Under the pieces are notes generated by a model. It searched no databases. It was not told where the DNA came from and saw nothing but the letters and a program-made list of their open reading frames with translations. A program made the position numbers and the translations under genes. DNA of 64,000 nucleotides from Eubacteriales bacterium (GTDB taxonomy: Bacteria; Bacillota; Clostridia; Oscillospirales; SIG627), in NCBI GenBank assembly GCA_045660745.1, contig JAZREJ010000041.1, positions 12,656-76,655 on the forward strand. Reading direction: 5' to 3'. Shown here one piece after another: positions 7,101-62,412 of the stretch (position 1 is its first letter; every line of letters begins with the position of its first letter).

Positions 7101-9032
7101 ATGTATACACACAGACTTGCTGTAAGATGTCTTAATGACCCTGCATGGGTTGATGAATTTTTAAAATACGTTGACGCAAATCCGAATTCATGTCAGGAGG
7201 TTTGGCTTTGCTCGTCATACGCTTTTCCTTCCATTGAAACGCACCGTCAATTTGCTAGAGGAATGAAGCCTGCTCTTGAGAAATTCAAGGCAAGAGGTAT
7301 CCGTGTTGCACTTCAGATATCAAATACCATCGGAGGTCATAACAATACTCTTTCCTCCGACTGTACGGGTCTTATCCGTGACGATTGGCACGCGCCTTAT
7401 TTTGTTTATCCAAACGGAGAGGAATGCCCCGGTAGATTCTGTGCACGCTCTAAAGCCTTTGCAGACTATATAGACGGCGAATTTGAAGCGTATCTTTCCG
7501 AGCTTGACGTGTGCGGTGTATGGATAGACGATGATTTCCGTATGGGTAATCATACTCAGTCCTGTTGGTGTGACTCTTGCATCGAAGAGTTTTCACGCCG
7601 TCAGGGAAGAGAGTATACAAGAGAAGAGCTTGTGCGCCTTGTAAACGATGATTTTGATACAAGAGATGCGTGGATAAAGTTCACAAGCGACAGAGCGCAC
7701 GATGCAGCAAAGCTTTTTGCGGACGTTGTACATAAATATAACCCCACAGCGTATATGGCTCTTCAGCACGGCGCTAACGGATATATGCAGGGCTGCGGCC
7801 ATACGTCTGTTTTTGAAGGCTTTATGGAAGGCTCGGGAGTTGCTCCCAAGTCACGTCCGGGAGGCGGCTCATACGAGGACTTCGACCCCAACACCTTTAT
7901 CAGAAAATATCGTTGGATGTCACATCAGACACGATATCTTCCCGAGTGCGTTGAGGATATCCGTCCCGAAATCGAAAACCTTCCCGACGTTGCCTATGGA
8001 AAAACAATGGCAGGTCTTGCCTTTGAGACAGCCTTCTATTTTGCGGGCGGTGCCACCAGCATGAGCTATGCCACCATGATGCGTCGCAACGAGCCTCTTT
8101 CATGGCTCACGATTCAGCTTCGCGATATGTCAGAAAACTTTGAGTGGTTTTCAAGGCTTTCAAAAATCAATAAGGAAACGAATCCCGACGGCGTTGAGGT
8201 GTACGTTGCCGAAAAGCCTTGGAATTATAAAACCGAAAAGGATTTTGCTTGGGAGCAGATATACTTTGATACGGGCGTTGAGCTTATCCGTGACGGATTT
8301 GGCGTAAACCTCAATAAGATAGGAAAGGTATTCTTCCTCAATAAGCACTATGCCGAGCTTCTCACAGACGACGAAATAAAGATGCTTCTTTCAAAGCCCG
8401 TTGTCTGCGACGGCGAGAGTGCTACCATTCTTACTGAGAGGGGATACGGAGATATGCTTGGTGTTAAGGCTGAGAATATCAAGACAGGCAAGCTTACCGA
8501 AAGACTTGCAGACGGCTATCCTTGGAGCTTTAACTTCTTTGTTCCGAGAGGAGCGCTTCTCACCCTTTCCGACAGAGCAAGAGAAATAACAAAGTATGAA
8601 GTGACCGCAACGGGAGAATATTTCGGCACAGCTTCAGCTTACACCGAGACAACCCTCGGCGGACGCTGGGCGGTTATCGGATACTGTCTCTTCCATCAGA
8701 TTACAAGCTTCGCAAAGAGATGTGCTATCGTTGACGCTATTGAGTGGGCGGGCGGCAAGCTTTCTGCAAAGTTAAATACCCCCGACAGAATGATAGTATT
8801 CCCGAGAGCGGATAAGAGCACAGGCAGACTGCGTGCGGTAAGCCTTGTGAATACAACGGTCGGAAAGGTGTCTGGTGCAATACTCGAGCTTGACGGAGAA
8901 TATACAAAGTGCGAGTGGCGCGCGCTTCACGTTCCGAGCACACCCCTGGAAACAAGAAGCGAGAACGGATCAACGTTTGTAACCATTCCCGATTTTGATG
9001 CTTGGAGCGTGGGAACACTGTTCCTTGACTAA
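7101..9032 (+). CDS. GH42-like TIM-barrel protein of unknown specificity
   Basis: 643 aa, RBS AAGGAG. Segment GVWIDDDFRMGNHTQSCWCDSCIEEF parallels the GH42 WNE...CxCxxC region of the two clear GH42 genes in this window. No further family assignment possible by eye. Confidence 0.5.
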   Translation: MYTHRLAVRCLNDPAWVDEFLKYVDANPNSCQEVWLCSSYAFPSIETHRQFARGMKPALEKFKARGIRVALQISNTIGGHNNTLSSDCTGLIRDDWHAPYFVYPNGEECPGRFCARSKAFADYIDGEFEAYLSELDVCGVWIDDDFRMGNHTQSCWCDSCIEEFSRRQGREYTREELVRLVNDDFDTRDAWIKFTSDRAHDAAKLFADVVHKYNPTAYMALQHGANGYMQGCGHTSVFEGFMEGSGVAPKSRPGGGSYEDFDPNTFIRKYRWMSHQTRYLPECVEDIRPEIENLPDVAYGKTMAGLAFETAFYFAGGATSMSYATMMRRNEPLSWLTIQLRDMSENFEWFSRLSKINKETNPDGVEVYVAEKPWNYKTEKDFAWEQIYFDTGVELIRDGFGVNLNKIGKVFFLNKHYAELLTDDEIKMLLSKPVVCDGESATILTERGYGDMLGVKAENIKTGKLTERLADGYPWSFNFFVPRGALLTLSDRAREITKYEVTATGEYFGTASAYTETTLGGRWAVIGYCLFHQITSFAKRCAIVDAIEWAGGKLSAKLNTPDRMIVFPRADKSTGRLRAVSLVNTTVGKVSGAILELDGEYTKCEWRALHVPSTPLETRSENGSTFVTIPDFDAWSVGTLFLD

Positions 9033-10586: not shown

Positions 10587-13500
10587 ATGGCTGTAGAACT
10601 TAACGAAAGAGAACTCAGGGCAGCGGGTCTTAAAAAGAAGCAGCTTGGCCGTAACATCAGAATGAGCTTTTCAAAGATTGATGAAGCGGTTGAAATGCCC
10701 AACCTGATTGAAGTTCAGAAGAAGTCATACGAATGGTTCGTGAACGAAGGTCTTATGGAGGTTTTACGCGACGTATCTCCTATCGTTGACTATTCGGGAA
10801 CCCTTTATATTGACTTTGTGGGCTTCACTTTGGAGAAGACCCCCAAGTACGGTGTTGAGGAGTGTAAGGAGCGTGACGTAAACTACGCTGTTCCCCTCAA
10901 GGTAAACGTACGTCTTACCAACAAGGCAACGGGTGAGATTAAGGAGTCTGTGGTTTATATGGGTGATTTCCCCATTATGACCGACAACGGAACCTTTGTC
11001 ATCAACGGTGCTGAGCGTGTTATTGTTTCTCAGATCGTCCGTTCTCCCGGTATCTACTACGATATCGAGATAGATAAGATGGACAAGAAGCTTTATTCCG
11101 CAACGGTAATTCCTTACCGCGGAGCATGGCTTGAATACGAGACCGATGCCAACGATATATTTTATGTAAGAATAGACAAGAACCGTAAGCTTCCCGTTAC
11201 AGTGCTTGTCCGTGCTCTTGCGCGTGAATTCAGTGAATCGAAGGACGTTCTCGAACTCTTTGGTAATAATAAGGTCATCAGAGATACTCTTGCAAAGGAC
11301 CTTATTGATGAGACCGTCAATAAGATGAAGACTGAAAAGAAGACCACCTCTGCTTACGAGGAGGCTCTTAAGGAAATATACAGAAAGCTCCGTCCCGGCG
11401 ATCCTCCGCTTGTAGAGAGCGCCGAAGGACTCCTTAATTCTCTCTTCTTTGATCCCAAGAAGTATGATATTTCGGCAGTCGGACGTTATAAATTTAATAA
11501 GAAGCTTGCTCTTTCCAGAAGAATTGCGGGCTTTGTACTCTCGCGCCCTGCGGTAAATCCCTTCACGGGAGAAGTCATCTACGACGCCGGCACACGTCTT
11601 ACCCGTGCTATGGCTGAGGAGATAGAGTACGCAGGCGTTACAGAGGCGTGGCTTGAGGGCGAGGATGAGATAAAGGTATTCTCAAACGGCGCCGTACATC
11701 TTGACCGCGTTTCTCCTTACGACGTATCCGATCTCGGTATTTCCGAGATGGTAGACCGTGACGTTCTCATGGAGATACTCGGAGAGGTTGAGGATGATGC
11801 TTCCTTCCGTGAAGCAGTTCTCCGCCGCCGCGACGAACTCATTCCCAAGAGTATTACCCGTAAGGATATTCTTTCCACCATCAACTATCTCGTATGCCTT
11901 TACAGTGACGTTGGAGTGAAGGACGATATTGACCACCTTGGCAACCGTCGTCTGCGCTCTGTCGGCGAGCTTCTCCAGAACCAGATGCGTATTGGCTTTA
12001 TGAGAATGGATAAGATTGTCAAGGAGCGTATGACCATTCAGGATATTGATTCGGTCACCCCTCAGGCTCTTATCAATATAAGACCCGTGGTATCCTCTAT
12101 TAAGGATTTCTTCGGTTCTTCTCCCTTGTCTCAGTTTATGGACCAGGGCAACCCCCTCGGTGAGCTTACTCACAAGAGACGTCTTTCCGCACTCGGTCCC
12201 GGCGGTCTTTCCCGTGACCGTGCATCCTCCGAGGTTCGTGACGTACACTACACTCAGTACGGAAGAATGTGTCCCATCGAGACCCCCGAAGGACCTAACA
12301 TCGGTCTTATTTCTTATCTTTCAACCTTTGCTCGTATCAGCCCATTCGGATTTATTGAGGCTCCTTACCGCAAGGTAGACCGTGAGACCGGTATCGTTAC
12401 AAACGACGTACATTATCTTACCGCTGACGAAGAGGATGAGTTTATCGTTGCTCAGGCAAATGAGCCTCTTGATGCAGACGGACGTTTTGTAAACAAGAAG
12501 ATAACTGCGCGCCAGAGAGAAGAAATCGTAGTAGTTGACGCTTCCGAAATCGACTACATGGACGTTTCTCCCAAGATGGTTGTGTCTGTTGCTACCGCAT
12601 TCATCCCATTCCTTGAAAACGATGACAACTCCCGTGCGCTCATGGGCTCTAACATGCAGAAGCAGGCAGTGCCCCTGATGGTCAACGATTCTCCTATCGT
12701 CGGAACCGGTATGGAGTATAAGGCAGCTGTTGATTCCGGCGTTACCGTTCTTTGTAAGAAGGCGGGTGTTGTTGAGAGTGTTTCGGCTGACGAGATTGTT
12801 ATACGCAACGATGACGGTGAGCTTGACACCTATAAGCTTATCAAGTTTAAGCGTACCAACCAAGGCACCTGTAACAACCAGCGTCCCATCGTATCTCGCG
12901 GTGAGCGCATTGAAGAGGGTGAGGTTATTGCCGACGGTCTTGCTACCAAGAACGGTGAGGTGGCACTCGGTAAGAACGCACTTATCGGATTTGTAACCTG
13001 GGAAGGCTACAACTACGAGGACGCGGTGCTCATCAATGAGCGACTTGTAAGAGATGACGTTTATACGTCTATCCATATAGAAGAATATTCACACGAAGCA
13101 CGCGACACCAAGCTCGGTCCGGAAGAAATCACAAGAGAGCTTCCTTCCGTCGGTCCCGAGGCACTCAAGGATCTTGATGCCGACGGTATCGTAAGAGTCG
13201 GTGCAGAGGTGCATTCCGGTGATATTCTCGTTGGTAAGGTAACACCCAAGGGTGAGACCGAGCTTACTGCCGAGGAAAGACTTCTCAGAGCTATCTTCGG
13301 TGAAAAGGCACGCGAGGTTCGTGATACCTCGCTTAAGCTCCCTCACGGAGAAAGCGGTATTATCGTAGACGTCAAGATATTCACACGTGAAAATCAGGAC
13401 GAGCTTCCTCCCGGAGTAAACAAAGTAGTTAAAGTATACGTAGCACAGAAGAGAAAAATTTCTGTCGGAGACAAAATGGCGGGTCGCCACGGTAACAAGG

Positions 13501-49735: not shown

Positions 49736-51805
49736 ATGAATAAACAGGAAAAACTTACATTCTTAAAAAACAACCCCGTTTTCTGGTCAAGACTCGGATT
49801 CAGTTATGACCCGCCAAGACGTGGCAAGGACGGGAAACCGATAGTATTTACTCCCGATCTTACGGAGGACTCGAGCTTTCACCGTGACTTTACTGACATA
49901 GGCGTTAAGATTCACACAAACATCCTTCATCTCGGATGGATGGGCATTGACGACTATGATTATTCGGTAACAGATGCTGTGCTTGAAGAAATCTTTAAAA
50001 ATGACGACATTTACTACATTCCACGTATAAAGCTCAACGTACCCGTTGACTGGTGCCGTGAAAATCCGGAGGACGTATTTGTATACTGGGAGGGGCCAAG
50101 AGATGCGGAAGAGATTCGTGCGCTCGTTGACACACCTAAGCACGACTGGTTTGGATATACTGCCCCCAAGGGATATTACAAGGCGGGTGACTTCATTGAT
50201 GACCGCCCGAACGTGGGCGGCGTCATTTCACGCCAGAGCTTTTCCTCCGAGAAGTGGCTGAGTGATGCGGGAGAGGCGCTCAGACGCCTTGTTGACAGAC
50301 TTGAAAACGGCAAATACGCCGATAGAATAATCGGCTATCATATTGCCTTCGGCGTTTCCGGAGAAGCCATTCTTTGGGGACGTGCCGACTATCACTACGG
50401 TGACTACGGAATAAAGAATACAGAAAACTTTTATGCGTGGGCAGAAAAGAAATACGGCTCAAAGGAGGCGCTTCTCAAGGCTTGGGATGGGGATCTCACC
50501 CTTCCTTCTCCCGACGAGCGCTATTCAAGATTTGATAAGACTGAGGAATTTCTCCGAGGTGACAGAATCGGACGTGTCAGCCGTGATATGGATGAGTTTA
50601 CAAGTGCTTCCTGTGCAAATGCCATAGAGTATTTTTCAAGGGTAATAAAGAGCTTTGCCCCTGACAAGCTTATCGGTGCGTTCTATGGCTACTTCATGCA
50701 CACCGACAATCCCAACTACGCTGGACATCTTGAGCTTCAAAGACTTCTTGACGGAGATCTTGTTGACTTTTTTGCCGCTCCCAAGATATATCACAGATGC
50801 GGTCCCGGCGAGCCGGGCGGTGAGATGTGCCCCGTTCAGTCGGTAAACCTCAAAAAACTTTGGGTAGACGAGGCTGACAACCGTACACATCTTGCCAGCG
50901 ATGACGTTGCGGCATGGCTTTGCCGTGATATGAATGATACACGCTGGGTTATGTGGCGCGAGCTTTCAAAGAACATCGCCCACGATTCAGGCTTTTGGTG
51001 GATGGACCTTGGCGGACGCTGGTTCAAATCACGCGAGATACTGGATGAGGTCAAGCATATGCTTGATGTTTCCTCCTATCTGCGCACCTTGCCCCATAAG
51101 TCTCCCGCAGATGCTTTAATACTTGTTGACGAAAAGTGTATCTACTCCATGGGAATCTCAAAAAATCTTCGTGTAGGCTTTATGGAGGACTTCGTGTGCG
51201 AGACGAGAAAGTCGGGTGTGATTGCCGACGTTTACAGACTCTCCGACATACGCACAATTGACCTTTCAAAATACAAGCTTATCGTATTCGCCTACACGTT
51301 TGAAATTTCTCAAGAGGACAAGCTCTTCCTTGAAAGTCATATTTCAAATGACGCAACCATTTCCTATCACTGGGCGGCCGGTGCTATCAAGGACGGCAAG
51401 GTATCTCTTGAAAACGTGAAGGATTTCACAGGGTTTGACGTTATACAAGTCGAGCGTGACAAATACGATTTTCCCAAGCTTACTGTTGAAAATGCTGAAG
51501 CCTTTTCGGACAAGGGCTTTATAAAGGGCAACAGACTTATTTTCACAGAGCCTTTTATCACACACTCTGAAATAAGAAAAATGGGAGAGATTGCGGGATG
51601 TCGCATCGTTTGTGACAACGGGCTTATCCTTTACGGGGACAACCGAATCACGGGTGTATTTTCCAAGGAAAAGCTTACTGGTAAGGTAAAGCTTTCGGAC
51701 AAGGCTTGCTGGCGTGAGGAATTTTCGGGTAAGGTATTTACACAGACCGATGAAGTTGACCTTGAGCAGTTTGATGCAAATATTGCGGTATTTATACGCA
51801 AATAA
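49736..51805 (+). CDS. distant GH42-like glycoside hydrolase candidate with trimerisation-like C-terminal region
   Basis: 689 aa with no signal peptide. N-terminal TIM-like region and a central block ALILVDEKCIY...LSKYKLIVFAY resembling the GH42 middle domain. Confidence 0.5.
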   Translation: MNKQEKLTFLKNNPVFWSRLGFSYDPPRRGKDGKPIVFTPDLTEDSSFHRDFTDIGVKIHTNILHLGWMGIDDYDYSVTDAVLEEIFKNDDIYYIPRIKLNVPVDWCRENPEDVFVYWEGPRDAEEIRALVDTPKHDWFGYTAPKGYYKAGDFIDDRPNVGGVISRQSFSSEKWLSDAGEALRRLVDRLENGKYADRIIGYHIAFGVSGEAILWGRADYHYGDYGIKNTENFYAWAEKKYGSKEALLKAWDGDLTLPSPDERYSRFDKTEEFLRGDRIGRVSRDMDEFTSASCANAIEYFSRVIKSFAPDKLIGAFYGYFMHTDNPNYAGHLELQRLLDGDLVDFFAAPKIYHRCGPGEPGGEMCPVQSVNLKKLWVDEADNRTHLASDDVAAWLCRDMNDTRWVMWRELSKNIAHDSGFWWMDLGGRWFKSREILDEVKHMLDVSSYLRTLPHKSPADALILVDEKCIYSMGISKNLRVGFMEDFVCETRKSGVIADVYRLSDIRTIDLSKYKLIVFAYTFEISQEDKLFLESHISNDATISYHWAAGAIKDGKVSLENVKDFTGFDVIQVERDKYDFPKLTVENAEAFSDKGFIKGNRLIFTEPFITHSEIRKMGEIAGCRIVCDNGLILYGDNRITGVFSKEKLTGKVKLSDKACWREEFSGKVFTQTDEVDLEQFDANIAVFIRK

Positions 51806-51870: not shown

Positions 51871-51899
51871 TTGACAAATAATCTTTGGTATGGTACACT
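51871..51899 (+). promoter_or_regulatory. sigma-A promoter for the GH42 pair
   Basis: TTGACA 51871-51876, 17 nt, TACACT 51894-51899 preceded by TGG. Confidence 0.6.
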
Positions 51900-51935
51900 C
51901 TTATTGTAAAATTGATGCTTAAAATGGAGGAAATA

Positions 51936-53990
51936 ATGAAACTATTTACAGAATTCTATCCCTACGGCACACAGTATCACAGAGCGCCCACACCTCTCCC
52001 CGAGGAATGGGAGGGCGATATTAAGACTATTGCTGAAAAGGGGTATACACATATACAGTTCCGTCCTCAGTGGAGATGTCACGAGAGGGTACGCGGGAAA
52101 TACGTTTGGGATGATCTTGACAGGCTGTTCGAGCTTGCGGAAAAGTACAATATGAAGGTCGTTTTGAAGCCGATGCTTGAAAACGCTCCCGACTACGTGT
52201 ATACAAAGCTTGATGGAACGCGTATAAGCTTCCGCGGTCTGCCCATCGTTCCTCATGCCCCCGCGGCATACTACGTTGGCGGTTGGCTGCCTTGCTTTGA
52301 CAACCCCAAGGTAAGAAAGGCTGCCGCAAAATTTGTACGTGAGCTTACAAACAGATACAAGGACCATCCAAGCCTTTGGTTCTACAACGCGTGGAACGAG
52401 CCGAGAAGCCGTCCTATGGGACAGTGCTGCTGTAAGCATTCGGTGAAAAATTATCAGAATTGGTTGCGCGAGCGCTACGGCACGATAGAAAATCTCAACC
52501 GCACCTTTGGAAAGGAGTGGGAGAGCTTCAAGACTATCATTCCCCCTCACTCAAACGGATGCTACGTTGAAATGTTCTTATGGCGCCGGTGGGCGGCATA
52601 TGCACTTTCGGAGCACGTTGGTCTTGTTGCAGACGCGATACGCGAGGCTGACCCAAATGCCCGCGTAATGTGTCATGTCGGCGCATCCGCAGTTCATCAG
52701 GATCCTGTGTCCGATACGTCGGATGACTTCCTCAATTTCTCGAAGGTGGATTGGTACGGAACCTCTATGTGGATACCCTTCCGTCCCGAGACTCCCGCCG
52801 CATATAACGAGCTTTTCTATCAGGCAGCATGGCTCAGACGAGTTGACAAGAACTGGCAGTGCCATGAATTTTATCCGAATCAGGGTAACTGGTGGACTGA
52901 GGGCAAGCCATCGTTTGTGGAGCAGTCGATTCTTATGACGCTTGCGTCGGGTGCAAGAGGACTTACCTTCTGGCAGTACAGAAGCGAGCGCTTTGGTAAG
53001 GAATCAAACGGCTGGGGAATGAGAAATATCGACGGAAGTCCCACACCGAGAAGCGAGCGCTGTGACAGGGTTGCGGATTTTCTTAAAAACAACCCCGAAA
53101 TTGCACTTTCGGATTATAAAAAGCCTGAGGTTGCAGTATACTTCGATATTGAAAACGACCTTTTGATGAAGCTTCAGAAGATGGGCATCACAGGTGGCAA
53201 TCCCGAGGGCGGCAATCTAAACGAGACTTCCAACTACAAAACTGCATTCAAAGGCGCTCATACAACCCTGCGACGCATGGGACATACCGCTGATTACGTA
53301 GTAAACGGAGATGATCTCTCCTCCTATAAGTTAGTGACCGTAACTTCTCTTGAAATGACCGACGAATATGAAAGAGCCGCGTTTGAAGAGTATGTCAGAA
53401 ACGGTGGTATACTTTACATAGAGTACCCGTTTGCTTGCCGCGACGAAAAGACATGGGTATCTCCAACCCGTCCGAACCTCGGATTTGATGCCCTTACCGG
53501 CTGTCGCGAAGTACACAGAGTTGACTTTTCTTCATATGTTTCAAACGTTATAAAATTCAATGACGGACATGAGGAAACAGCAGCAGGCTGGCATATCACG
53601 CTCGAACCTGTTGCGGATGATGTAAAGGTGCTTGCTAATTGGAAGGATGGCGGTGTTGCTGTTGTTGAGAGACAGGTTGGGCGCGGTAAAGTTATCGTTT
53701 CTGCGGGTAGCTTCTCATCGTTTGCTCAGGAAAACTCCACCGAGATGATTCCCTCGCTTTACTACAAGCTCATGCTTTACGCAGGCCTTGAGATAAACGA
53801 AAGCCACGTATGGACTCTCTCAAGAGTATCGGATGAATTTGAATACCGCTTCTTCTTCAACACAAGTTATGATGATGCAACGGTTGAAAACTGCGGTGAG
53901 CTGATATTTGCTTCCGAGGAATGTACCGTTTCCGACAGCGGAACAGTTCTTCCTCACCAGACCTCCGCAATATACAGAATAAAGCTTTAA
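51936..53990 (+). CDS. GH42 family beta-galactosidase-like glycoside hydrolase
   Basis: ORF track 51885..53990; start moved to ATG 51936 behind GGAGG. Segments YPYGTQYHRAPTP, FYNAWNEPRS, LTFWQYRSERFGKESNGWG. Confidence 0.88.
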   Translation: MKLFTEFYPYGTQYHRAPTPLPEEWEGDIKTIAEKGYTHIQFRPQWRCHERVRGKYVWDDLDRLFELAEKYNMKVVLKPMLENAPDYVYTKLDGTRISFRGLPIVPHAPAAYYVGGWLPCFDNPKVRKAAAKFVRELTNRYKDHPSLWFYNAWNEPRSRPMGQCCCKHSVKNYQNWLRERYGTIENLNRTFGKEWESFKTIIPPHSNGCYVEMFLWRRWAAYALSEHVGLVADAIREADPNARVMCHVGASAVHQDPVSDTSDDFLNFSKVDWYGTSMWIPFRPETPAAYNELFYQAAWLRRVDKNWQCHEFYPNQGNWWTEGKPSFVEQSILMTLASGARGLTFWQYRSERFGKESNGWGMRNIDGSPTPRSERCDRVADFLKNNPEIALSDYKKPEVAVYFDIENDLLMKLQKMGITGGNPEGGNLNETSNYKTAFKGAHTTLRRMGHTADYVVNGDDLSSYKLVTVTSLEMTDEYERAAFEEYVRNGGILYIEYPFACRDEKTWVSPTRPNLGFDALTGCREVHRVDFSSYVSNVIKFNDGHEETAAGWHITLEPVADDVKVLANWKDGGVAVVERQVGRGKVIVSAGSFSSFAQENSTEMIPSLYYKLMLYAGLEINESHVWTLSRVSDEFEYRFFFNTSYDDATVENCGELIFASEECTVSDSGTVLPHQTSAIYRIKL

Positions 53991-53999
53991 GGAGATAGC

Positions 54000-56060
54000 A
54001 TGGAAAATATTTTTACAGATATATTCCCTTACGGTACTCAGTACCACAGAGCCCCTACTCCACTTCCCGAGGAATGGGAGGAAGACTTTCAAAACATAAA
54101 AAACAACGGATATACACACGTTCAGTTTCGTCCGCAGTGGAGATGGCATGAGAGGGTAAGAGGACAGTATACCTGGGATGACCTCGACCGTCTTTTCGAT
54201 CTTGCAGACGAATATGATATAAAGGTGGTTTTGAAGCCGATGCTTGAAAATGCCCCCGACTATGTCTATCATGAGCTTGGAGGTACTCGAATAGGCTTTA
54301 GAGGACACCCTATAGGTCCTATTTCACACGCAGCTTTTTATGTTGGCGGTTGGCTTCCTTGTTTTGATAATCCCGAGGTTGCAAAGGCTGCGGGAGATTT
54401 CGTCTTCGAGCTTGTATCAAGATATAAAAACCGTAAGAGTCTTTGGTTCTACAATGCATGGAATGAGCCGAGAAGCCGCCCCCTCGGACAGTGCACTTGT
54501 CCTCATTCAGTAAAGAAATACCGAGAATTTTTGAAAAACCGATTCGGTACTGTTGAAAACCTCAACCGTATTTACGGAAAGGCTTGGGAAAGCTTTGAGA
54601 CGATCACACCTCCTCTGTCAAGCTCTGATTACGTTGAACTGTTTTTGTGGAGAAGATGGGCGGCACAAGCGGTAGCAGAGCATATTTCCATTGCATCCGA
54701 AGCAATAAGACGTGCTGACCCGAATGCCAAGGTAATGTGTCACGTCGGTGCATCGTCTGTACGTCAGGACCCGGCTTGCGACACCTCCGACGATTTCCAA
54801 AACAAAGAAACCGTTGATTGGTACGGCACCTCCATGTGGATTCCAATGAACCCTGAGAATCCGCTTGAATATGACAGCACTCTTATTCAATCGTCCTGGC
54901 TCCACAGGGTAGATAAAAACTGGATGTGCCACGAATTCTACCCGAATCAGGGTAACTGGTGGCCCGAGGCAAAGCCCGAATATATCGAGCAAGCAGCTCT
55001 TATGGCGATATCCGTCGGATGCCGCGGACTTACCTTCTGGCAGTACAGAAGTGAGCGCTTTGGAGAAGAGTCAAACGGATGGGGAATGAGAAATATCAAC
55101 GGAAGTGCAACTCCGAGAAGCGAGCGCTTTGACCGACTCGGAAGAATACTTTCGACCGAGAAGGATCTTGCAAAAACTGATTACGTCGCACCTCCCGTCG
55201 CGCTCTACTTTGATATGGAAAACGATCTTCAGATGAGATTGCAAACTATAAACTCACCCACGGGTGAGGAGCTTGGACGCGTGCAACCCTCATACTCTCA
55301 CGCAACAAAGACCTCTGTAAACGGTGCTCACGCAACCCTCAGACGTCTTGGATATACGGCGGATTTCGTCGTAAAGGGGGATGACCTATCTCGCTATAAG
55401 GCGGTCGTTGTGTCCTCACTTGAAATGACAACAAACGTGGAGCGTGAAGCGTTTGAAAACTACGTTAAAAACGGTGGTGTTCTCTACATAGAATATCCCT
55501 TCGCTTGCCGTGATGAGAGAACTTGGGTATCTCCCAATCGTCCGAATTCGGGCTTTGAAGCACTCACCGGATGCCTTGAAGCGCACAGAGTTGAGTTCTC
55601 AAAGAGAATGACAAACAAGATGATATTCGAGGACGGCAGAATTGAAGAGACTGCGGGATGGCACGTAACTCTTGAGCCTATTGCAGACGACGTAAAGATT
55701 CTTGCACGCTGGGAGGAAGGTGGCGTTGCCGCGATCGAGCGTAAGGTAGGAAATGGAAAGGTCATTGTTTCTGGTGGAAACTTTTCAATATGGTCACACG
55801 ATCACTCGACAGAGGCTATTCCCTCACTCTTCGCAAAATCACTTGAGGATGCGGGTATCCGTGTCGACACCTCTCCTCTTTGGGTAATCGAGCGTGAATC
55901 GGATGAATATCTCTTCCGATTTGTGTTCAACACAGGAGACGAAAGTGTCGTGTGTGACAAGCTTGGTGAGATAGCATTCTCAGCAATTGAAATCACCGAA
56001 GGAAACGGAAAGATCACACTTCCTCCTCAAACGAGCGTAGTGTTTAAGATCAAAAAATGA
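54000..56060 (+). CDS. GH42 family beta-galactosidase-like glycoside hydrolase (tandem paralog)
   Basis: 686 aa, collinear with the preceding gene along its whole length (same YGTQYHRAPTPLPEEWE, FYNAWNEPRSRP and WQYRSERFG blocks). Confidence 0.88.
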   Translation: MENIFTDIFPYGTQYHRAPTPLPEEWEEDFQNIKNNGYTHVQFRPQWRWHERVRGQYTWDDLDRLFDLADEYDIKVVLKPMLENAPDYVYHELGGTRIGFRGHPIGPISHAAFYVGGWLPCFDNPEVAKAAGDFVFELVSRYKNRKSLWFYNAWNEPRSRPLGQCTCPHSVKKYREFLKNRFGTVENLNRIYGKAWESFETITPPLSSSDYVELFLWRRWAAQAVAEHISIASEAIRRADPNAKVMCHVGASSVRQDPACDTSDDFQNKETVDWYGTSMWIPMNPENPLEYDSTLIQSSWLHRVDKNWMCHEFYPNQGNWWPEAKPEYIEQAALMAISVGCRGLTFWQYRSERFGEESNGWGMRNINGSATPRSERFDRLGRILSTEKDLAKTDYVAPPVALYFDMENDLQMRLQTINSPTGEELGRVQPSYSHATKTSVNGAHATLRRLGYTADFVVKGDDLSRYKAVVVSSLEMTTNVEREAFENYVKNGGVLYIEYPFACRDERTWVSPNRPNSGFEALTGCLEAHRVEFSKRMTNKMIFEDGRIEETAGWHVTLEPIADDVKILARWEEGGVAAIERKVGNGKVIVSGGNFSIWSHDHSTEAIPSLFAKSLEDAGIRVDTSPLWVIERESDEYLFRFVFNTGDESVVCDKLGEIAFSAIEITEGNGKITLPPQTSVVFKIKK

Positions 56061-56215: not shown

Positions 56216-56249
56216 GAAAAAACACACGACATTTGTGTCGTGTGTTTTG
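56216..56249 (-). terminator. rho-independent terminator of glpP
   Basis: ACACACGACA (56222-56231) / TGTCGTGTGT (56236-56245). Plus A6 at 56216-56221 gives a U-run on the minus strand. Confidence 0.75.
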
Positions 56250-56251
56250 CT

Positions 56252-56782
56252 TTATCTCCAAAGCTCTCTTTTACCTGTTGAAACAGCAAACGCACCTGAA
56301 ACGTGCGCAAGAGCTACTTCCTCCTCAGTCTCAATAAGACCGCCTGCAATAATGGGAATAGTCACTCTGTCGCGGAAGAAGGAGATTGCCTTCGTTGCAA
56401 TTCCGGGCATAAGCTCAATCATATCAGGAAGATTCTTCTGCATGGTATCGACGGCAGTAGCAATTGAGTGGGAATCAACGATAAATACTCTTTGAACAGT
56501 TTTCATACCGAGATCCCTTGCCGACTTTATGATACTTGCGCGGGTACTTATTATACCATCAACACCGAGTGTCTTAAGATATAAACATCCTGACGTATCC
56601 TTGCCTATACCATCGGCAAAATCCATATGTACAAAAAGTCTCTTTCCCGCAGTGTGTACCTTTTCAAGAACACTCTGAAGCTCCATTATATCGGTCTTTA
56701 AAAGAAATATATCCGAAACGCTTGACAAAAGCGCTTCTTCTAAATCCCGCTGGTTTCTTACCGCTGCAATTATCTTTCCCAT
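56252..56782 (-). CDS. glpP: GlpP-family RNA-binding antiterminator
   Basis: ORF track 56252..56851; start moved to ATG 56782 behind GGAGGG. Strong resemblance to Bacillus subtilis GlpP as recalled from memory (DGIISTR, IPIIAGGLIETEEEV, STGKRELW). Confidence 0.85.
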   Translation of the reverse strand: MGKIIAAVRNQRDLEEALLSSVSDIFLLKTDIMELQSVLEKVHTAGKRLFVHMDFADGIGKDTSGCLYLKTLGVDGIISTRASIIKSARDLGMKTVQRVFIVDSHSIATAVDTMQKNLPDMIELMPGIATKAISFFRDRVTIPIIAGGLIETEEEVALAHVSGAFAVSTGKRELWR

Positions 56783-56794
56783 AAAACCCTCCAA

Positions 56795-56847
56795 AGAAAA
56801 AATAAGCGCACTACTGCTGCAGCATTTTGCCACAGCAGTATGTGCAC
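56795..56847 (-). terminator. leader terminator upstream of glpP (leader 2)
   Basis: Minus strand GTGCACATACTGCTG (56847-56833) / CAGCAGTAGTGCGC (56819-56806), loop containing GGCAAAATG, then TTATTTTTT. Confidence 0.7.
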
Positions 56848-56878
56848 TCAAAATCTCAGCAATTACTACAGTAACTTG

Positions 56879-56907
56879 ATTATAGCACCGAGTGAGATTT
56901 TTGTCAA
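56879..56907 (-). promoter_or_regulatory. consensus sigma-A promoter for glpP
   Basis: Minus strand TTGACA (56907-56902), 17 nt, TATAAT (56884-56879). Begins 8 nt after the malic enzyme stop. Confidence 0.75.
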
Positions 56908-56914
56908 GAATAAT

Positions 56915-58087
56915 TTATATTCTTGCAACGCCCGTCTCACGTGCGGTCTTGATAACCGCTTCTGCAACGACCTCAGCAACTCTCTTATCAAGAGCTGAAG
57001 CGATAATGTTTTCCTCAGAAAGCTCTTCGTCGCTGATAAGGGATGCGAGAGCAAAAGAGGTTGCAACCTTCATTTCCTCGTTGATGCAGGTAGCTCTGCA
57101 ATCAAGCGCACCGCGGAAGATACCGGGGAAAGCAAGTACGTTGTTTATCTGGTTGGGAAAGTCGGAGCGTCCTGTGCCGACAACTCTTGCACCTGCCTTC
57201 TTTGCTATGTCCGGCATGATTTCGGGAGTGGGGTTTGCCATGGGGAACATGATAGCATCATTCGCCATAGACTTTACCATATCCTCGTTTACGAGGTTTG
57301 GAGCGGAAACACCGATAAATACGTCAGCGCCAACGAGAGCATCAGCAAGAGTTCCTTTCTTGTGCTCAAGGTTTGTAACCTTAGAGATTTCTTCCTGTGC
57401 AACGTTGTTATTTTCGTCACCCTCGCAGATGATGCCGAAACGGTCGCAGAAGGTAAGATTTTTAACGCCGATGTTGAGGAGGTGACGTCCGATAGCGATA
57501 CCTGCACTTCCAGCGCCGTTGATAACTACTTTAACCTCACCGATCTCCTTCTTAACAACCTTAAGCGCGTTGATAAGAGCTGCCGCAACAACGATAGCTG
57601 TTCCGTGCTGGTCATCGTGGAAAATCGGGATATCACAGATTTCTTTAAGCTTTCTCTCAATCTCAAAGGAACGGGGAGCGGAAATATCCTCGAGGTTGAT
57701 ACCGCCGAAGCTTCCGGAGAGAAGATAAATCGTTCTTACAATTTCGTCAACGTCCTTGGACTTGATGCAAAGGGGGAATGCATCAACGTCTGCAAATTCC
57801 TTGAAGAGTGCACATTTACCCTCCATAACGGGCATACCTGCCTCAGGTCCGATATCACCGAGACCGAGGATTGCAGTACCATCGGTTATAACCGCAACGA
57901 GATTTGAACGACGGGTAAGGTCATAGGACTTGTTTATATCCTTGTTGATTTCAAGGCAAGGCTCTGCAACACCGGGGGTATATGCAAGAGAGAGATCCTG
58001 ACGGTCATTGATGGGGGCACGGGAGATAACTTCTATCTTACCCTTCCATTCGTAATGCTTTTTGAGTGATTCTTGTCTGATATCCAT
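56915..58087 (-). CDS. NAD(P)-dependent malic enzyme
   Basis: 390 aa. Segments AYTPGVAEPC, IPIFHDDQHGTAIV, INGAGSAGIAI. Confidence 0.92.
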   Translation of the reverse strand: MDIRQESLKKHYEWKGKIEVISRAPINDRQDLSLAYTPGVAEPCLEINKDINKSYDLTRRSNLVAVITDGTAILGLGDIGPEAGMPVMEGKCALFKEFADVDAFPLCIKSKDVDEIVRTIYLLSGSFGGINLEDISAPRSFEIERKLKEICDIPIFHDDQHGTAIVVAAALINALKVVKKEIGEVKVVINGAGSAGIAIGRHLLNIGVKNLTFCDRFGIICEGDENNNVAQEEISKVTNLEHKKGTLADALVGADVFIGVSAPNLVNEDMVKSMANDAIMFPMANPTPEIMPDIAKKAGARVVGTGRSDFPNQINNVLAFPGIFRGALDCRATCINEEMKVATSFALASLISDEELSEENIIASALDKRVAEVVAEAVIKTARETGVARI

Positions 58088-58090
58088 TTT

Positions 58091-59200
58091 TTAGTCCTCC
58101 CAAGGGAATTTATATTGTGTAAGACCAAGTGTGTTACGAACCTCTTCCATTTCCTTCTGAACAGATTCGTTGATCGGCACGCCCGACTCGCGTGCAAGGC
58201 GAACTTCATGTTCCTTCTCACCCGCAGTGTAGATACGCTCTGCATCGGGAGCTTTTCTGGAAGCACGAACTTCACGAAGAATATCGCCCGCCTTTTTACG
58301 GCAAACATCCTCACCGAGGAAGTGATCGGTATCGATTGCGATAAAGAAGTGCCCGAGGCAGTAGGGAACCTTGTTTCCATTTTCGTCCTTACCTGTAAGA
58401 GCCTTACCATAGCTGCCGTCCTGAAGAACTGCAGACATAAGCTCTACGAACATAGCAAAGCCGTAGCCCTTGTATCCGCATCCTTCTTCACCGGGACCGC
58501 CGAGAGTACAAAGTGCAGCCTCTCCGCGTGCCATAGCCTTAAGAGCATCCGCTGAAGTTCCCTCATAGGCTTCGCCCTCAAGATTTACCAGCGCGCCCTT
58601 GGGAGCGTCCTTGCCGATACGCGCATAATACTCGAGCTTGCCATTTTGGTAGGTGGAGCTTGCGGCATCAAAGTTAAAATCAAACGCCTCGTCGGTGGGG
58701 ACGCCGAGAGTTAATGGGTTGGTACCGAACATACCCTCAACACCGAAGGTGGGGGCAACTGTTGGACGTGCGTTTGTACCTGTCATACCTACACAACCCG
58801 CTTTAGCTGCCATGGAAGTGTAATAGCCGGCGATACCATAGTGGCAGGAGTTACGAACAACTACCATACCCATACCATATTCTTTAGCTTTTGCAATAGC
58901 CATCGACATCGCCTTGTGACCGATGACCTGACCCATACCATGATGTCCGTCAACAACGGCAGTGGTGGGGGTTTCCTTGATGATTTCAAAGTTTGTAATT
59001 GGGTTCTGGATACCGTCTCTGATTCTGTCGAGATAAACTGGCTTGAAGCGGTTAACACCGTGAGATTCGATACCTCTCTTATCGGATTCGAGAAGAACGT
59101 CAGCACATATCTCTGCATCCTCTCTGGGAATTCCGTAACCTACGAAAGCGTCGATAACGAAATTCGTGATTGTTTTCCAATCGACAATGTTGCTTTTCAT
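58091..59200 (-). CDS. Ldh2 (malate/L-lactate dehydrogenase type 2) family oxidoreductase
   Basis: 369 aa. Segments ESHGVNRF, DGHHGMGQV, GYKGYGFAMFVELMS; RBS GGAGG. Confidence 0.82.
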   Translation of the reverse strand: MKSNIVDWKTITNFVIDAFVGYGIPREDAEICADVLLESDKRGIESHGVNRFKPVYLDRIRDGIQNPITNFEIIKETPTTAVVDGHHGMGQVIGHKAMSMAIAKAKEYGMGMVVVRNSCHYGIAGYYTSMAAKAGCVGMTGTNARPTVAPTFGVEGMFGTNPLTLGVPTDEAFDFNFDAASSTYQNGKLEYYARIGKDAPKGALVNLEGEAYEGTSADALKAMARGEAALCTLGGPGEEGCGYKGYGFAMFVELMSAVLQDGSYGKALTGKDENGNKVPYCLGHFFIAIDTDHFLGEDVCRKKAGDILREVRASRKAPDAERIYTAGEKEHEVRLARESGVPINESVQKEMEEVRNTLGLTQYKFPWED

Positions 59201-59226
59201 CTTTTTTCCTCCAAAATATTAATTCC

Positions 59227-59275
59227 AACAAAAAAGCGCACTTATCCCATCGTATTTGCCGATAAATAAGTGCAC
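59227..59275 (-). terminator. leader terminator upstream of the Ldh2-family gene (leader 1)
   Basis: Minus strand GTGCACTTAT (59275-59266) / ATAAGTGCGC (59245-59236), inner ATCG/CGAT stem, loop containing GGCAAATA, then TTTTTTGTT. Confidence 0.7.
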
Positions 59276-59297
59276 TCTAAAATCTCAATGCGTAGAT

Positions 59298-59326
59298 ATT
59301 ATAATAGATTTTTTGAATATTGTCAA
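59298..59326 (-). promoter_or_regulatory. consensus sigma-A promoter for the Ldh2/malic enzyme operon
   Basis: Minus strand TTGACA (59326-59321), 17 nt, TATAAT (59303-59298). Confidence 0.75.
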
Positions 59327-59756
59327 GCATAATTCTGCAAACAGCATGATTATTCTTCCACACTCACTATTTTACGGATTCACACCCCTTGCCAAACAGA
59401 TCAAGTGTAAGCGACGTACCGCTAAACTTTTTTCACAATCTAACTCCTTTTAGTCTATAAAATAGTATAAAAACCGCCAGAAATCTGCTTTTCAGAGCTT
59501 TGCTTGTTGCAAAATCTATTGTCTCTCGTAACAGCAAGCCTCTCACAGATACAGCATTGAGCTTTTATCAGTGGAAACATTTTACGTTTATTTTATCACA
59601 ATTAATAATTTTTTTAATCCTATATCGGTAAATATCTTGTTCCTCATAATATTACGTGCTCATTATTCACCCGATTTTACAAGCGGACATCATATCGGAG
59701 CAAGTCAAACAGACACGGGATATTCCGATCTCTTGTTTTTTTGAAGAGAGCCTTTT

Positions 59757-60953
59757 CTACCGTTTTGATCTTAGTTTTACGTTCTTATAGAGAAAAAACA
59801 GTCCGAAGGTCAGAGTTATCGGAAATACTGTGGCAGTAAGTAAGCCTATTTTCAGGTCTCCGCCCGCCATTTCCGAGAATTTGCCCACCATAGCAGGGCT
59901 TACGGTTGCCCCCAAGTCTCCAGCCAAAGCCAAAAAGGCAAACATAGCAGTTCCGCCTCGCGGACATTTTTGAGAGGAAATACTGATCGTTCCGGGCCAC
60001 ATGATTCCGACGGCAAGACCGCAAAGAGCGCAACCTACCAAGCCTAATATCGGCAAAGGAGACAGCGACGCAATCAAATAACATGCTGTACAGGAAGCTC
60101 CGCATAAAAGCATGGTTTTTGTAAGGTTGAGATTTTGGCTCATTTTTCCGTATGACATACGGGCAACACCCATGAATGCCGCAAATAAACAAGCGCCCGC
60201 CAGATCTCCTACAGTTTTGGATACTCCGAGTGCCGATTCGGTAAATGCAGATGTCCACTGGGACATGGTGGCTTCCGAAGCACCGGCACATATCATCAGA
60301 ATTATCATCAGCCAAAAGACAGGAACTCCGAATAACTGCTTTATACTCATGCTATTTCCGTCCTCAACCAGTCTTTCTATAGGACAGCGCATAAAATTAA
60401 ATGCGTTATACAGCGGAACCAAAGCCCAGATAAAGGTAAGTATTTTCCAGCTTTCTATACCGAATATTGTGAAAAATGCTGTTGACCCCAATATCACTCC
60501 TACCGCACCCCAGCAGTAAAATGAGTGCAACAGACTCATCATGCCGTCTTTGTTTTCAAAAGGACACGCCTCAACGATTGGACTTACAAGTACCTCGATA
60601 AGACCGCTGCCTATTGCGTAAAAAATTACGGCAATAAGCAGTCCGACAAACGGTGCTGACATTATATCCGGCAAAATCGCCATTAAAACAAGTCCCACCG
60701 ATGACAACAGCTGTGATGCAACCACACAGATCCGATAACCTATTCTGTCGGCATATTTTGTGGCTGCCAGATCCGTGAGTAATTGTGTAAAATAAAATAC
60801 CAAAGGAATAAGAGCTATTTTTTCAAGCGAAATTCCGTAGGTTCCTTTAAAGGTCAAGAACAATAGCGGCGAAAAGTTCGCCGATATTGATTGTGTTACA
60901 AATCCGAGATAACAGGCCACCAATGTTTTTTTGTAATTCTTTTGCTTTACCAT
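59757..60953 (-). CDS. MFS transporter
   Basis: 398 aa with about 12 TM segments. Confidence 0.85.
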   Translation of the reverse strand: MVKQKNYKKTLVACYLGFVTQSISANFSPLLFLTFKGTYGISLEKIALIPLVFYFTQLLTDLAATKYADRIGYRICVVASQLLSSVGLVLMAILPDIMSAPFVGLLIAVIFYAIGSGLIEVLVSPIVEACPFENKDGMMSLLHSFYCWGAVGVILGSTAFFTIFGIESWKILTFIWALVPLYNAFNFMRCPIERLVEDGNSMSIKQLFGVPVFWLMIILMICAGASEATMSQWTSAFTESALGVSKTVGDLAGACLFAAFMGVARMSYGKMSQNLNLTKTMLLCGASCTACYLIASLSPLPILGLVGCALCGLAVGIMWPGTISISSQKCPRGGTAMFAFLALAGDLGATVSPAMVGKFSEMAGGDLKIGLLTATVFPITLTFGLFFLYKNVKLRSKR

Positions 60954-61345
60954 AATTGCTCACTTCCTAAAAGCTGAATTCACAGTCCCTATGTTCTCAG
61001 AGTACATCCCAGAAGCCTTAAACCAATTTAAATTTTCCATCGTCAACAAAGTATTTACATCGTAGAGCTCCTTGGCAGCACAGCCTAAAACAGTTTATCA
61101 TATAGCAACCGAAAAATCAATATAAATAAGCTTTTTTAAGTATTAAAAATCCAAGATCCGCGCTTTCTCGCTACACTGATATTATATCCCACGTCAAATG
61201 TACGGCAAAACAATTTTTGATAAAAGCGCATCATATAGCTTTATAACGATTTTATAAATTATAAGAGCTGTATATTGAAAAAAACAGCATTCAATAAGAT
61301 AAAAGAACTCATCAAATTCTTACTTGTCGAACAGTTAAATAGAGA

Positions 61346-61373
61346 AAGAGCGGAGGCTTAGACCTCCGCTCTT
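61346..61373. terminator. terminator hairpin downstream of rubrerythrin
   Basis: AAGAGCGGAGG / CCTCCGCTCTT; T-rich flanks on both strands. Confidence 0.65.
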
Positions 61374-61409
61374 TGTGTTTTCTATATAATTGCTATGTGG
61401 TTCACGATC

Positions 61410-61997
61410 TTATTTGAAATATCTCTTAAGAAGACCTTCAAGACCTCTGCCGTGTCTTGCTTCATCTCTTGCCATTTCATGAACGGTGTCATGGATAGCG
61501 TCAAGGCCGTTCTTCTTAGCGCAAGAAGCGAGGTCAAATTTGCCCTGGGTTGCGCCGTATTCACAGTCAACTCTCCACTTAAGGTTGTCCTTGGTGGTAG
61601 CTTTCATATTGGGCTCAAGGTCCTCACCAAGAAGCTCAGCAAACTTTGCTGCATGCTCTGCTTCTTCGTATGCTGCCTTTTCCCAGTAAAGTCCTACTTC
61701 GGGATAGCCCTCTCTGTGAGCGATGCGTGCCATGCAGAGGTACATACCAACCTCGGCACACTCTCCATTGAAGTTAGCCATGAGCTGTTCGAATATGTAC
61801 TTCTTATCTTCTTCACTGATGTCGGGGTTATTCTTAACGGTCTTTGCATAAACACCATACTCGTGCTGTGCTGCGAGAGCTGCGCCCTCTTCCATTACCT
61901 TAAATTTGTCTGCGGGAACCTTACATACAGGGCACTTTTCGGGAGCTGCATCGCCCTCGTGAACGTAACCGCATACTGAACATACATACTTTGCCAT
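61410..61997 (-). CDS. rbr: reverse rubrerythrin (N-terminal rubredoxin-like domain plus di-iron four-helix domain)
   Basis: ORF track 61410..62012; start moved to ATG 61997 behind GGAGG. Segments [31 protein letters not shown]. Confidence 0.9.
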
Positions 61998-62031
61998 AAT
62001 AAAATCCTCCAAAAATTATATAAATTATTTT

Positions 62032-62412
62032 TTATTTGGTACAATCCTTACACGTTCCGTAAAAGAACATTCTGTGGTAATCAATTTTTGCACCTGTCTT
62101 TTTTTCAGCCTCTACGTCGATTGCATCAAGCGGCATCTCAACATCAAGTATACGATTGCACTCGTTACATACGAAGTGACTGTGCTCATGGGTGAACGCA
62201 TCGTAGTGCTCGGTTCCGCTTCCGGTTTCAAGCCTTAATATTAGTCCTTTGTCGGAAAGCTGTTTTAAATTTCTGTAAACTGTTCCAAGACTTACGTTCG
62301 GGAACCCCTTCCTCATATTAAAGTAAACCCAATCTGCATCGGGGTGTTCTTTGGTAGACTTTAATAATTCGATTATAGCATCGCGTTTATCGGAATGCTT
62401 TTCCTGAGCCAT
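62032..62412 (-). CDS. perR: Fur family peroxide-responsive repressor (PerR-like)
   Basis: 126 aa. Segments HPDADWVY..SLGTVYRNL, HSHFVCNECNR and CKDC (two CxxC pairs). Lies directly upstream of rubrerythrin. Confidence 0.8.
   Translation of the reverse strand: MAQEKHSDKRDAIIELLKSTKEHPDADWVYFNMRKGFPNVSLGTVYRNLKQLSDKGLILRLETGSGTEHYDAFTHEHSHFVCNECNRILDVEMPLDAIDVEAEKKTGAKIDYHRMFFYGTCKDCTK

Follow-up and report, generated by a model that had tools for sequence, protein, structure and literature searches.

Antitermination by GlpP has been known as a class of mechanism since the 1990s. In Bacillus subtilis, GlpP, a regulator of the PF04309 family, controls glpD as well as glpFK and glpTQ; the 5'UTR carries an intrinsic terminator behind a strong promoter. 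The glpD 5'UTR (...AACGGUCCUGAGAUGAGGAGAGACCACAGC...GCUGUUGUGGUCUCUUUUU) contains the stretch GGUC-cu-GAGAUGAG-GAG-A-GACC, with a GAGA-N4-GAG box whose two GAG triplets lie 5 nt apart; the second GAG opens the 5' arm of the terminator, and the upstream GGUC is complementary to GACC within that arm. Combined with foreign promoters, this 5'UTR makes expression dependent on GlpP and glycerol, and a glpP deletion removes the effect (PMC9604022). Our literature searches returned no paper mapping the contact site of GlpP on glpD RNA or describing this motif comparatively.

The BglG, LicT and SacY systems with their RAT elements work through a small, weak hairpin that is stabilised by the protein and shares the bases of its 3' strand with the terminator 5' arm, as we propose below for GlpP. 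BglG-type proteins are controlled by PTS phosphorylation, whereas GlpP is controlled by a bound metabolite. The RNA sequence also differs, and the protein fold is unrelated: the GlpP of the locus studied here resembles the structural-genomics GlpP entries 3kts and 1vkf, and Pfam detected in it only the G3P_antiterm domain and no CAT or PRD domain. TRAP promotes termination instead of preventing it. HutP/hut and TRAP/trp resemble the present case in combining a ligand-activated protein with short repeated NAG/GAG triplets in single-stranded leader RNA beside a terminator (PMC2425495). However, HutP takes 6 triplets and TRAP 11, against two GAGs here, and the proteins are unrelated. On the metabolic side, the malate shunt of Clostridium thermocellum and its relatives likewise involves an adjacent malate-type 2-hydroxyacid dehydrogenase and malic enzyme in an anaerobic organism of the class Clostridia; the dehydrogenase of our locus belongs instead to the Ldh_2 family, with malate as its putative substrate. 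Literature searches found no paper that ties the malate shunt to control by glycerol or glycerol-3-phosphate.

We analysed the window, that is, the whole stretch of 64,000 nucleotides of Eubacteriales DNA, with a focus on the leader that precedes its Ldh_2 gene (leader 1), which is quite probably a GlpP-dependent transcription attenuator. As in B. subtilis glpD, a strong promoter leads into a 5'UTR with an intrinsic terminator, the second GAG of a two-GAG box opens the terminator 5' arm, a short upstream stretch is complementary to the start of the arm (GGUC/GACC in glpD, GCAU/GUGC in leader 1), and the regulator is of the PF04309 family. Unlike the B. subtilis leaders, leader 1 precedes genes for an Ldh_2-family dehydrogenase and a malic enzyme, its GAG spacer is 6 nt instead of 5 nt, and the window system is known from sequence alone. 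Moreover, glpP of the window lies behind a second leader, implying autoregulation. To our knowledge, leader-driven autoregulation has not been reported for B. subtilis glpP. A further difference concerns the 5' end: Bacilli leaders start with AAGUUAAUA, or with AGUUAAUA in the case of the B. subtilis glpD 5'UTR, and the window and Clostridia leaders lack this sequence.

Two leaders in one operon

The order on the minus strand is MFS transporter, leader 1, Ldh_2, malic enzyme, leader 2, glpP and terminator, with the following features:

59321..59326, minus strand: -35 hexamer TTGACA of the leader-1 promoter (from the sequence; 12/12 in the promoter scan)
59298..59303, minus strand: -10 hexamer TATAAT of the leader-1 promoter (from the sequence; 17-nt spacer from TTGACA)
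59287..59291, minus strand: 5' strand GCAU(U) of P1, a proposed weak antiterminator helix; pairs with (A)GUGC 59276-59272
59275..59286, minus strand: conserved box GAGAUUUUAGAG, proposed GlpP contact site (GAG 1 59286-59284, U-rich spacer, GAG 2 59277-59275)
59230..59277, minus strand: intrinsic terminator of leader 1 (5' arm 59277-59266, apical part 59265-59246, 3' arm 59245-59234, U6 59235-59230)
59198..59212, minus strand: ribosome-binding site GGAGG (59212-59208) and ATG of Ldh_2 (59200-59198), from the sequence
58091..59200, minus strand: Ldh_2-family 2-hydroxyacid dehydrogenase (PF02615, E = 2.7e-111)
56915..58087, minus strand: malic enzyme, short 390-aa form (PF00390 and PF03949; matches the NADP-dependent malic enzyme subfamily)
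56797..56907, minus strand: leader 2 (promoter TTGACA-17-(TG)cTATAAT 56907-56879; box UGAGAUUUUGAGUGCAC 56858-56842; terminator 56849-56804; U-tract to 56797)
56252..56782, minus strand: GlpP homologue, the proposed trans-acting factor (PF04309, E = 7.6e-58; PDB 3kts, 3.2e-32)
56219..56248, minus strand: terminator-like hairpin (inverted repeat) closing the operon after glpP (13 pairs in the scan, which lists it on the plus strand; minus-strand sequence AAAACACACGACACAAATGTCGTGTGTTTTTT)

After TATAAT, leader 1 reads ...ACGCAUUGAGAUUUUAGAGUGCACUUAU-uuaucggcaaauacgauggg-AUAAGUGCGCUUUUUUG on the minus strand, followed by GGAGG and ATG; the full stretch between TATAAT and GGAGG is aucuacGCAUUGAGAUUUUAGAGUGCACUUAUuuaucggcaaauacgaugggAUAAGUGCGCUUUUUUG. 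The exact pattern TTGACA-N17-TATAAT occurred twice in 64 kb, once in each leader, and never in 100 shuffles. The usual distance of 6-8 nt from the -10 hexamer would put the transcription start at about 59293-59290, and the RNA would therefore begin at or just before the 5' strand of P1. The terminator arms, GAGUGCACUUAU (59277-59266) and AUAAGUGCGCUU (59245-59234), form 12 bp, which extend inward to 18 pairs in the minimum-free-energy fold. The 95-nt leader folded at -25.7 kcal/mol (z = -4.6), with none of 200 shuffles as stable, and the terminator hairpin by itself at -21.4 kcal/mol. As in glpD-type leaders, this terminator lies in the 5'UTR between promoter and ribosome-binding site, and a PF04309 GlpP is encoded in the same operon. 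An earlier sequence-only reading had noted the perfect promoter, the GGAGG and the ATG at 59200 on the minus strand, and its letters and coordinates were all correct. It had also recognised the hairpin with U6 before the Ldh2-family gene as a terminator and proposed RNA folding as a check; the folding bears out the strong hairpin, but the stem is longer than the 10 bp it gave.

The box of leader 1 is of the form GAG-N5/6-GAG, a pattern that we drew from the leader of B. subtilis glpD together with six leaders of Bacilli and 46 of Clostridia, and the terminator 5' arm opens at the second GAG (59277). The spacer is 6 nt in leader 1 and in the related loci L003 and L031, and 5 nt in most leaders. 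P1 of leader 1 has 4-5 pairs, one base off the register of the family, which itself would give one wobble pair only, and its 3' strand sits within the terminator 5' arm. The sequence-only reading had stated that no mutually exclusive antiterminator helix could be drawn; this has to be revised, since the short P1 can be drawn, overlaps the terminator arm and shows compensatory changes at the level of the family. When the growing RNA was folded, the P1 hairpin had the lowest free energy while the nascent leader was 25-45 nt long (-2.5 to -4.0 kcal/mol), and the terminator (-22.9 kcal/mol) displaced it once the 3' arm had been transcribed. By these predicted energies, P1 of leader 1 is much too weak to outcompete the terminator without a bound protein. 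Judging by its 6-nt spacer and its shifted P1, leader 1 is the most divergent member of the leader family. It was not detected at E <= 1 by a covariance model of P1 plus loop (R2), and its 61.8 bits with another covariance model (R1) are the score of a seed sequence of that model.

Leader 2 lies 2.4 kb downstream of leader 1, and its promoter begins 8 nt past the stop codon of the malic enzyme. After the promoter it reads gcUGAGAUUUUGAGUGCAC...GUGCGCUUAUUUUUU, followed by GGAGGG and the ATG of glpP at 56782. It folded at -37.6 kcal/mol (z = -5.4) and scored 73.6 bits with R1 and E = 0.06 with R2. The box UGAGAUUUU(A)GAGUGCAC and GUGCGCUU are common to both leaders, the middle of the stem differs by compensating changes, and the pattern GAGTGCAC-N-GTGCGCTT occurred twice within the window and not in shuffles. 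A GGCAAA(A)U motif in the terminator loop, also common to both window leaders, was dropped as a candidate because it is not conserved in the related loci L001 or L002.

Neither Ldh_2 nor malic enzyme is a classical glp gene, and the operon holds no classical glp gene. The closest solved relatives of the Ldh_2 protein, PDB 3i0p (5.8e-87) and 1v9n (6.9e-81), were both deposited as malate dehydrogenase; however, the protein stays under every NCBIfam equivalog cut-off, and its substrate is therefore unproven. The MFS transporter (59757-60953) was rejected as part of the system, as it matched nothing in PDB or NCBIfam and none of the related loci has a homologue. Between it and the leader-1 promoter lie about 430 nt (59330-59756) with no convincing ORF, in which a simple scan found no terminator of the MFS gene. 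Beyond the MFS gene, genes for rubrerythrin (61410-62012) and for a Fur-family, PerR-like protein (62032-62412) stand behind an 11/12 promoter with extended -10 (62483-62456), and a two-way terminator (61345-61374) closes the pair. On the other side, two tandem GH42 beta-galactosidase paralogues (51885-53990 and 54000-56060), which follow a 689-aa ORF (49736-51805), converge on the glpP terminator.

A leader family at glpP loci

We collected 80 genome loci around GlpP homologues, all from gut or rumen Clostridia MAGs, in which GlpP is 49-77% identical to that of the window. Going by these relatives, the window probably derives from an Oscillospiraceae-like member of the gut or rumen Clostridia; exact-sequence look-ups of its GlpP and Ldh_2 proteins returned no record for either. 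A custom scan for GAG-N3-8-GAG, a 7-bp helix from the second GAG and a U-rich tail revealed 46 leaders in 44 of the 80 loci, in addition to both window leaders; the main class has the form GAUAC-a-GAGAUUUGGAGAC-GUAUC. The covariance model R2, which covers the 5' region of the leaders, gave 59 convincing matches in 56 loci, every one of them on the glpP strand and upstream of the operon. All 49 aligned leaders have the first GAG unchanged, and conservation of the second is 90% or more. The terminator 5' arm opens at the second GAG in 49 of 49 collected leaders, the first 7 pairs being a search criterion. The genes usually found downstream encode DAO plus Fer2_BFD (a GlpA-like glycerol-3-phosphate dehydrogenase), Pyr_redox_2, DUF1667, GDPD, GlpP and a HAD hydrolase, and the genes behind the collected leaders form a predicted glycerol-3-phosphate regulon.

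In the clade closest to the window, the box GCUGAGAUUUUGAGUGCA with a terminator ending in UGCGCU(C/U)U5-7 precedes glpP (L001, L002, L009), and the same box and terminator stand before an FAD oxidoreductase in L003, L020, L023 and L030. At the base of the stem in this clade, the 5' side GAGUGCA never varies, while its partner is UGCGCU, UGCACU or UGUGCU, indicating that the 5' strand is constrained by more than pairing. Co-evolution of the leader classes (GAGUGCA against GAGACGUAUC) with GlpP clades was considered and set aside. The classes do track the GlpP tree, but their difference is confined to the stem and L075 is an exception; thus, we read the pattern as common descent and not as co-evolving contacts.

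The evidence for P1 comes from an ungapped-register MAFFT alignment of the 49 leaders, in which P1 is formed by the five bases immediately ahead of the first GAG and the five that follow the second GAG box. The observed pairs include GAUAC/GUAUC, GAUGC/GCAUC, AAUGC/GCAUU, AUAUG/CAUAU, GACGC/GUGUC, GGUC/GACC and AUGC/GCAU. Overall, 88.6% of the P1 cells were paired, two-sided changes occurred at all 5 pairs (22 cells), neither the observed pairing nor the covariation score was reached in any of 500 shuffles, and sliding the 3' partner by 1-3 columns lowered the pairing to 9-50%. Two covariation measures exceeded the shuffles only moderately (9/500 and 39/500), and kinship inflates such counts. 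RNAalifold predicted no pairs and no consensus helix in the P1 region, so the case for P1 rests on the pair counts. The GAUGC/GCAUC variant turns up on three distinct branches of the GlpP tree (L006, L014, L064), which indicates that it arose more than once. By itself, P1 amounts to about -1 to -6 kcal/mol, compared with -18 to -37 kcal/mol for the terminators. A helix that covaries and yet is so weak is what would be expected if it needs a bound protein to stand against the terminator.

Leaders of glpF and glpD from Priestia megaterium, Lysinibacillus and Paenibacillus, fetched via the GlpP proteins of these Bacilli, share the layout of the Clostridia leaders (L082:8565-8740 and 11128-11296; L083:6079-6288 and 8559-8723; L084:8571-8823 and 12577-12968). 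All six begin with AAGUU(A/C)AUA about 5-10 nt before P1, as does B. subtilis glpD with AGUUAAUA.

Ldh_2 and malic enzyme beside glycerol genes

The order Ldh_2, malic enzyme, glpP recurs in six related loci (L001, L002, L060, L063, L068, L075), with 75-92% identity to the window for Ldh_2 and 85-95% for malic enzyme. GlpP-type leaders precede Ldh_2 in L002, L060, L068 and L075, and the same kind of leader was found in 10 more metagenome loci sampled from the Ldh_2 side. In all 15 Ldh_2 leaders examined, a strong promoter ends 5-12 nt before the motif. By eye, the short helix of these leaders is formed from other letters in several loci: UGCAU/GUGCA in L002 and L093, GCAU/GUGC in L097, GCAC/GUGC in L086 and L087, GUGCU/AGCAC in L092, and GUA/UAC in L107. 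It is little developed or absent, again by eye, in the orthologous leaders L089 and L075.

The independent sample from the Ldh_2 side comprised 80 metagenome loci, grouped at about 95% nucleotide identity into 39 clusters. The genes for Ldh_2 and malic enzyme are neighbours in almost every case. In 12 of the 39 clusters the pair follows glycerol kinase at 36-164 nt (GlpK at 715 bits, with an equivalog cut-off of 590). A GlpP-type leader stands immediately before the pair in 11 further clusters, and in three cases glpP is just upstream. Taken from gene order, the Ldh_2/malic enzyme pair is a recurrent accessory of glycerol loci in gut Clostridia. Purely by inference, its role could be malate-shunt-like, converting oxaloacetate to malate and pyruvate and passing reducing equivalents from NADH to NADPH.

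Several of these loci carry other elements. The gap between glpK and Ldh_2 in L109-L133, from human gut (e.g. L110:3376-3500), contains AAGUUAAUC-AGGGGGGACAAAGC...GCUUUGUUCCUCUUUUU, a terminator after a AAGUUAAU box, without the two GAG boxes. Each of the seven Bacilli glpF/glpD leaders examined also starts with this AAGUUAAU box, which takes the form AGUUAAUA in B. subtilis glpD and has a C substituted at one position in Lysinibacillus glpF; the human-gut element may be a different class of GlpP-responsive element. In the Ldh_2 cluster L100-L106, a promoter followed by UAUUGGUGGAAAUUGGGAUGUCGAUUCCCUUUACCAUUUGUACCCCAAUC lies about 150 nt upstream of Ldh_2 in place of a GlpP-type leader. Between malic enzyme and glpP in L063 (1945-2194), 4-5 short GC-rich hairpins, each followed by (A)GCUAAAU, stand downstream of a promoter-like site; the array looks like a repeated protein-binding or structured leader.

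Ligand, alternative readings and proposed mechanism

Glycerol-3-phosphate is most likely the ligand of the window GlpP, as judged from the protein and its relatives. It is unlikely that this GlpP has diverged to another ligand, such as malate, oxaloacetate or a redox cofactor, and become a dedicated regulator of the Ldh_2/malic enzyme pair through the same RNA mechanism. Such a change would suit an operon that has no classical glp gene and that contains an autoregulated glpP, and would also suit the distribution of the Ldh_2-linked GlpPs over three separate branches of the GlpP tree. However, the window GlpP retains all residues conserved to 85% or more in 80 GlpPs, six from Bacilli included, and six other Ldh_2-linked GlpPs show only few single conservative substitutions relative to this consensus. 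Furthermore, the sister GlpP of L003 (72% identical) belongs to a glycerol-3-phosphate dehydrogenase operon with the same type of leader. Together, the conserved residues, the context of L003 and the three branches give no sign of a changed ligand. The finding of glpK directly before the Ldh_2/malic enzyme pair in 12 of 39 clusters also argues against another ligand, because a glycerol signal makes sense there.

A second alternative dispenses with GlpP: the P1 stem and GAG loop might be the aptamer of a small riboswitch and respond directly to glycerol-3-phosphate or a similar metabolite. Small transcriptional riboswitches do have this layout, with a short conserved stem-loop that overlaps a terminator, and P1 covaries, but several results make this reading very improbable. 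Rfam 15 gave no match for the whole window at the gathering score, and for 59100-59800 at E <= 10 the best hit (E = 0.2) was an unrelated thermometer model upstream of the hairpin. Weak matches to RsaOG and sau-5949 were rejected, as they reflect only a generic terminator. The Bacilli glpF/glpD leaders likewise matched no family in Rfam 15. In the sampled loci the element lies beside or within reach of glpP, and although that sampling was centred on glpP, the same holds in the Ldh_2-side sample for L093 and L107. Deletion of glpP in B. subtilis abolishes induction via the homologous glpD leader (PMC9604022). P1 is also too weak for thermodynamic prediction. Other Rfam matches in related loci, a TPP riboswitch, a c-di-GMP-I riboswitch and a PyrR site (L020:2116-2225; L083:15926-16011 and 13010-13122), are unrelated. 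The sequence-only reading had preferred protein-mediated antitermination through a GlpP homologue to a riboswitch, and the recurrence of box and layout in leader 2, in 56 of 80 glpP loci and in B. subtilis glpD, together with the lack of an Rfam match, supports that preference.

Finally, the hairpin might act as a leaky attenuator of fixed strength, or end a short RNA (about 60 nt) made constitutively from the strong promoter, in either case with no regulated read-through. This is scarcely credible: a perfect promoter with an efficient terminator would indeed release many short transcripts, but a short terminated RNA is expected as a by-product of an attenuator anyway, and this reading leaves the invariant GAG boxes, the fixed position of the arm, the covariation of P1 and the linkage to glpP across dozens of species unexplained.

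We therefore favour GlpP-dependent attenuation, for which we propose the following course. The very strong sigma-A-type promoter would fire constitutively, and by default the nascent RNA of about 60 nt would fold as the terminator, so that transcription halts ahead of Ldh_2. When loaded with its ligand, most likely glycerol-3-phosphate, the co-encoded GlpP would bind the box UGAGAUUUUAGAG, which ends in the first three bases of the terminator 5' arm and can be closed by P1, GCAU(U)/(A)GUGC. Binding would keep the bases of the box and of P1 off the terminator 3' arm, either by stabilising P1 or by occluding the start of the arm, and RNA polymerase would then continue into the Ldh_2 and malic enzyme genes. 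At leader 2, binding of GlpP would in the same way raise the expression of glpP, amounting to positive autoregulation.

The class of mechanism is already known, and the set of controlled genes is unusual but recurrent. We put forward, as a tentative proposal that falls somewhat short of an even chance, that the GlpP of gut and rumen Clostridia took the Ldh_2 and malic enzyme module into its regulon and, at the same time, that P1 with GAGA-N4-GAG is an uncurated RNA recognition motif of the whole GlpP family, acting by protein-stabilised antitermination. The definition of the GlpP leader by sequence and structure, with two GAGs, a weak enclosing helix and a terminator starting from the second GAG, applies to Bacilli and Clostridia alike and has no entry in Rfam. 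With it, GlpP regulons could be annotated in genomes and metagenomes, and it offers a concrete model of how GlpP may block termination. The companionship of Ldh_2/malic enzyme and glycerol genes points to an unstudied tie between glycerol catabolism and malate and redox metabolism; if the proposal is true, control of the pair by GlpP would couple the use of glycerol to a rerouting of NADH/NADPH or carbon of the malate-shunt type.
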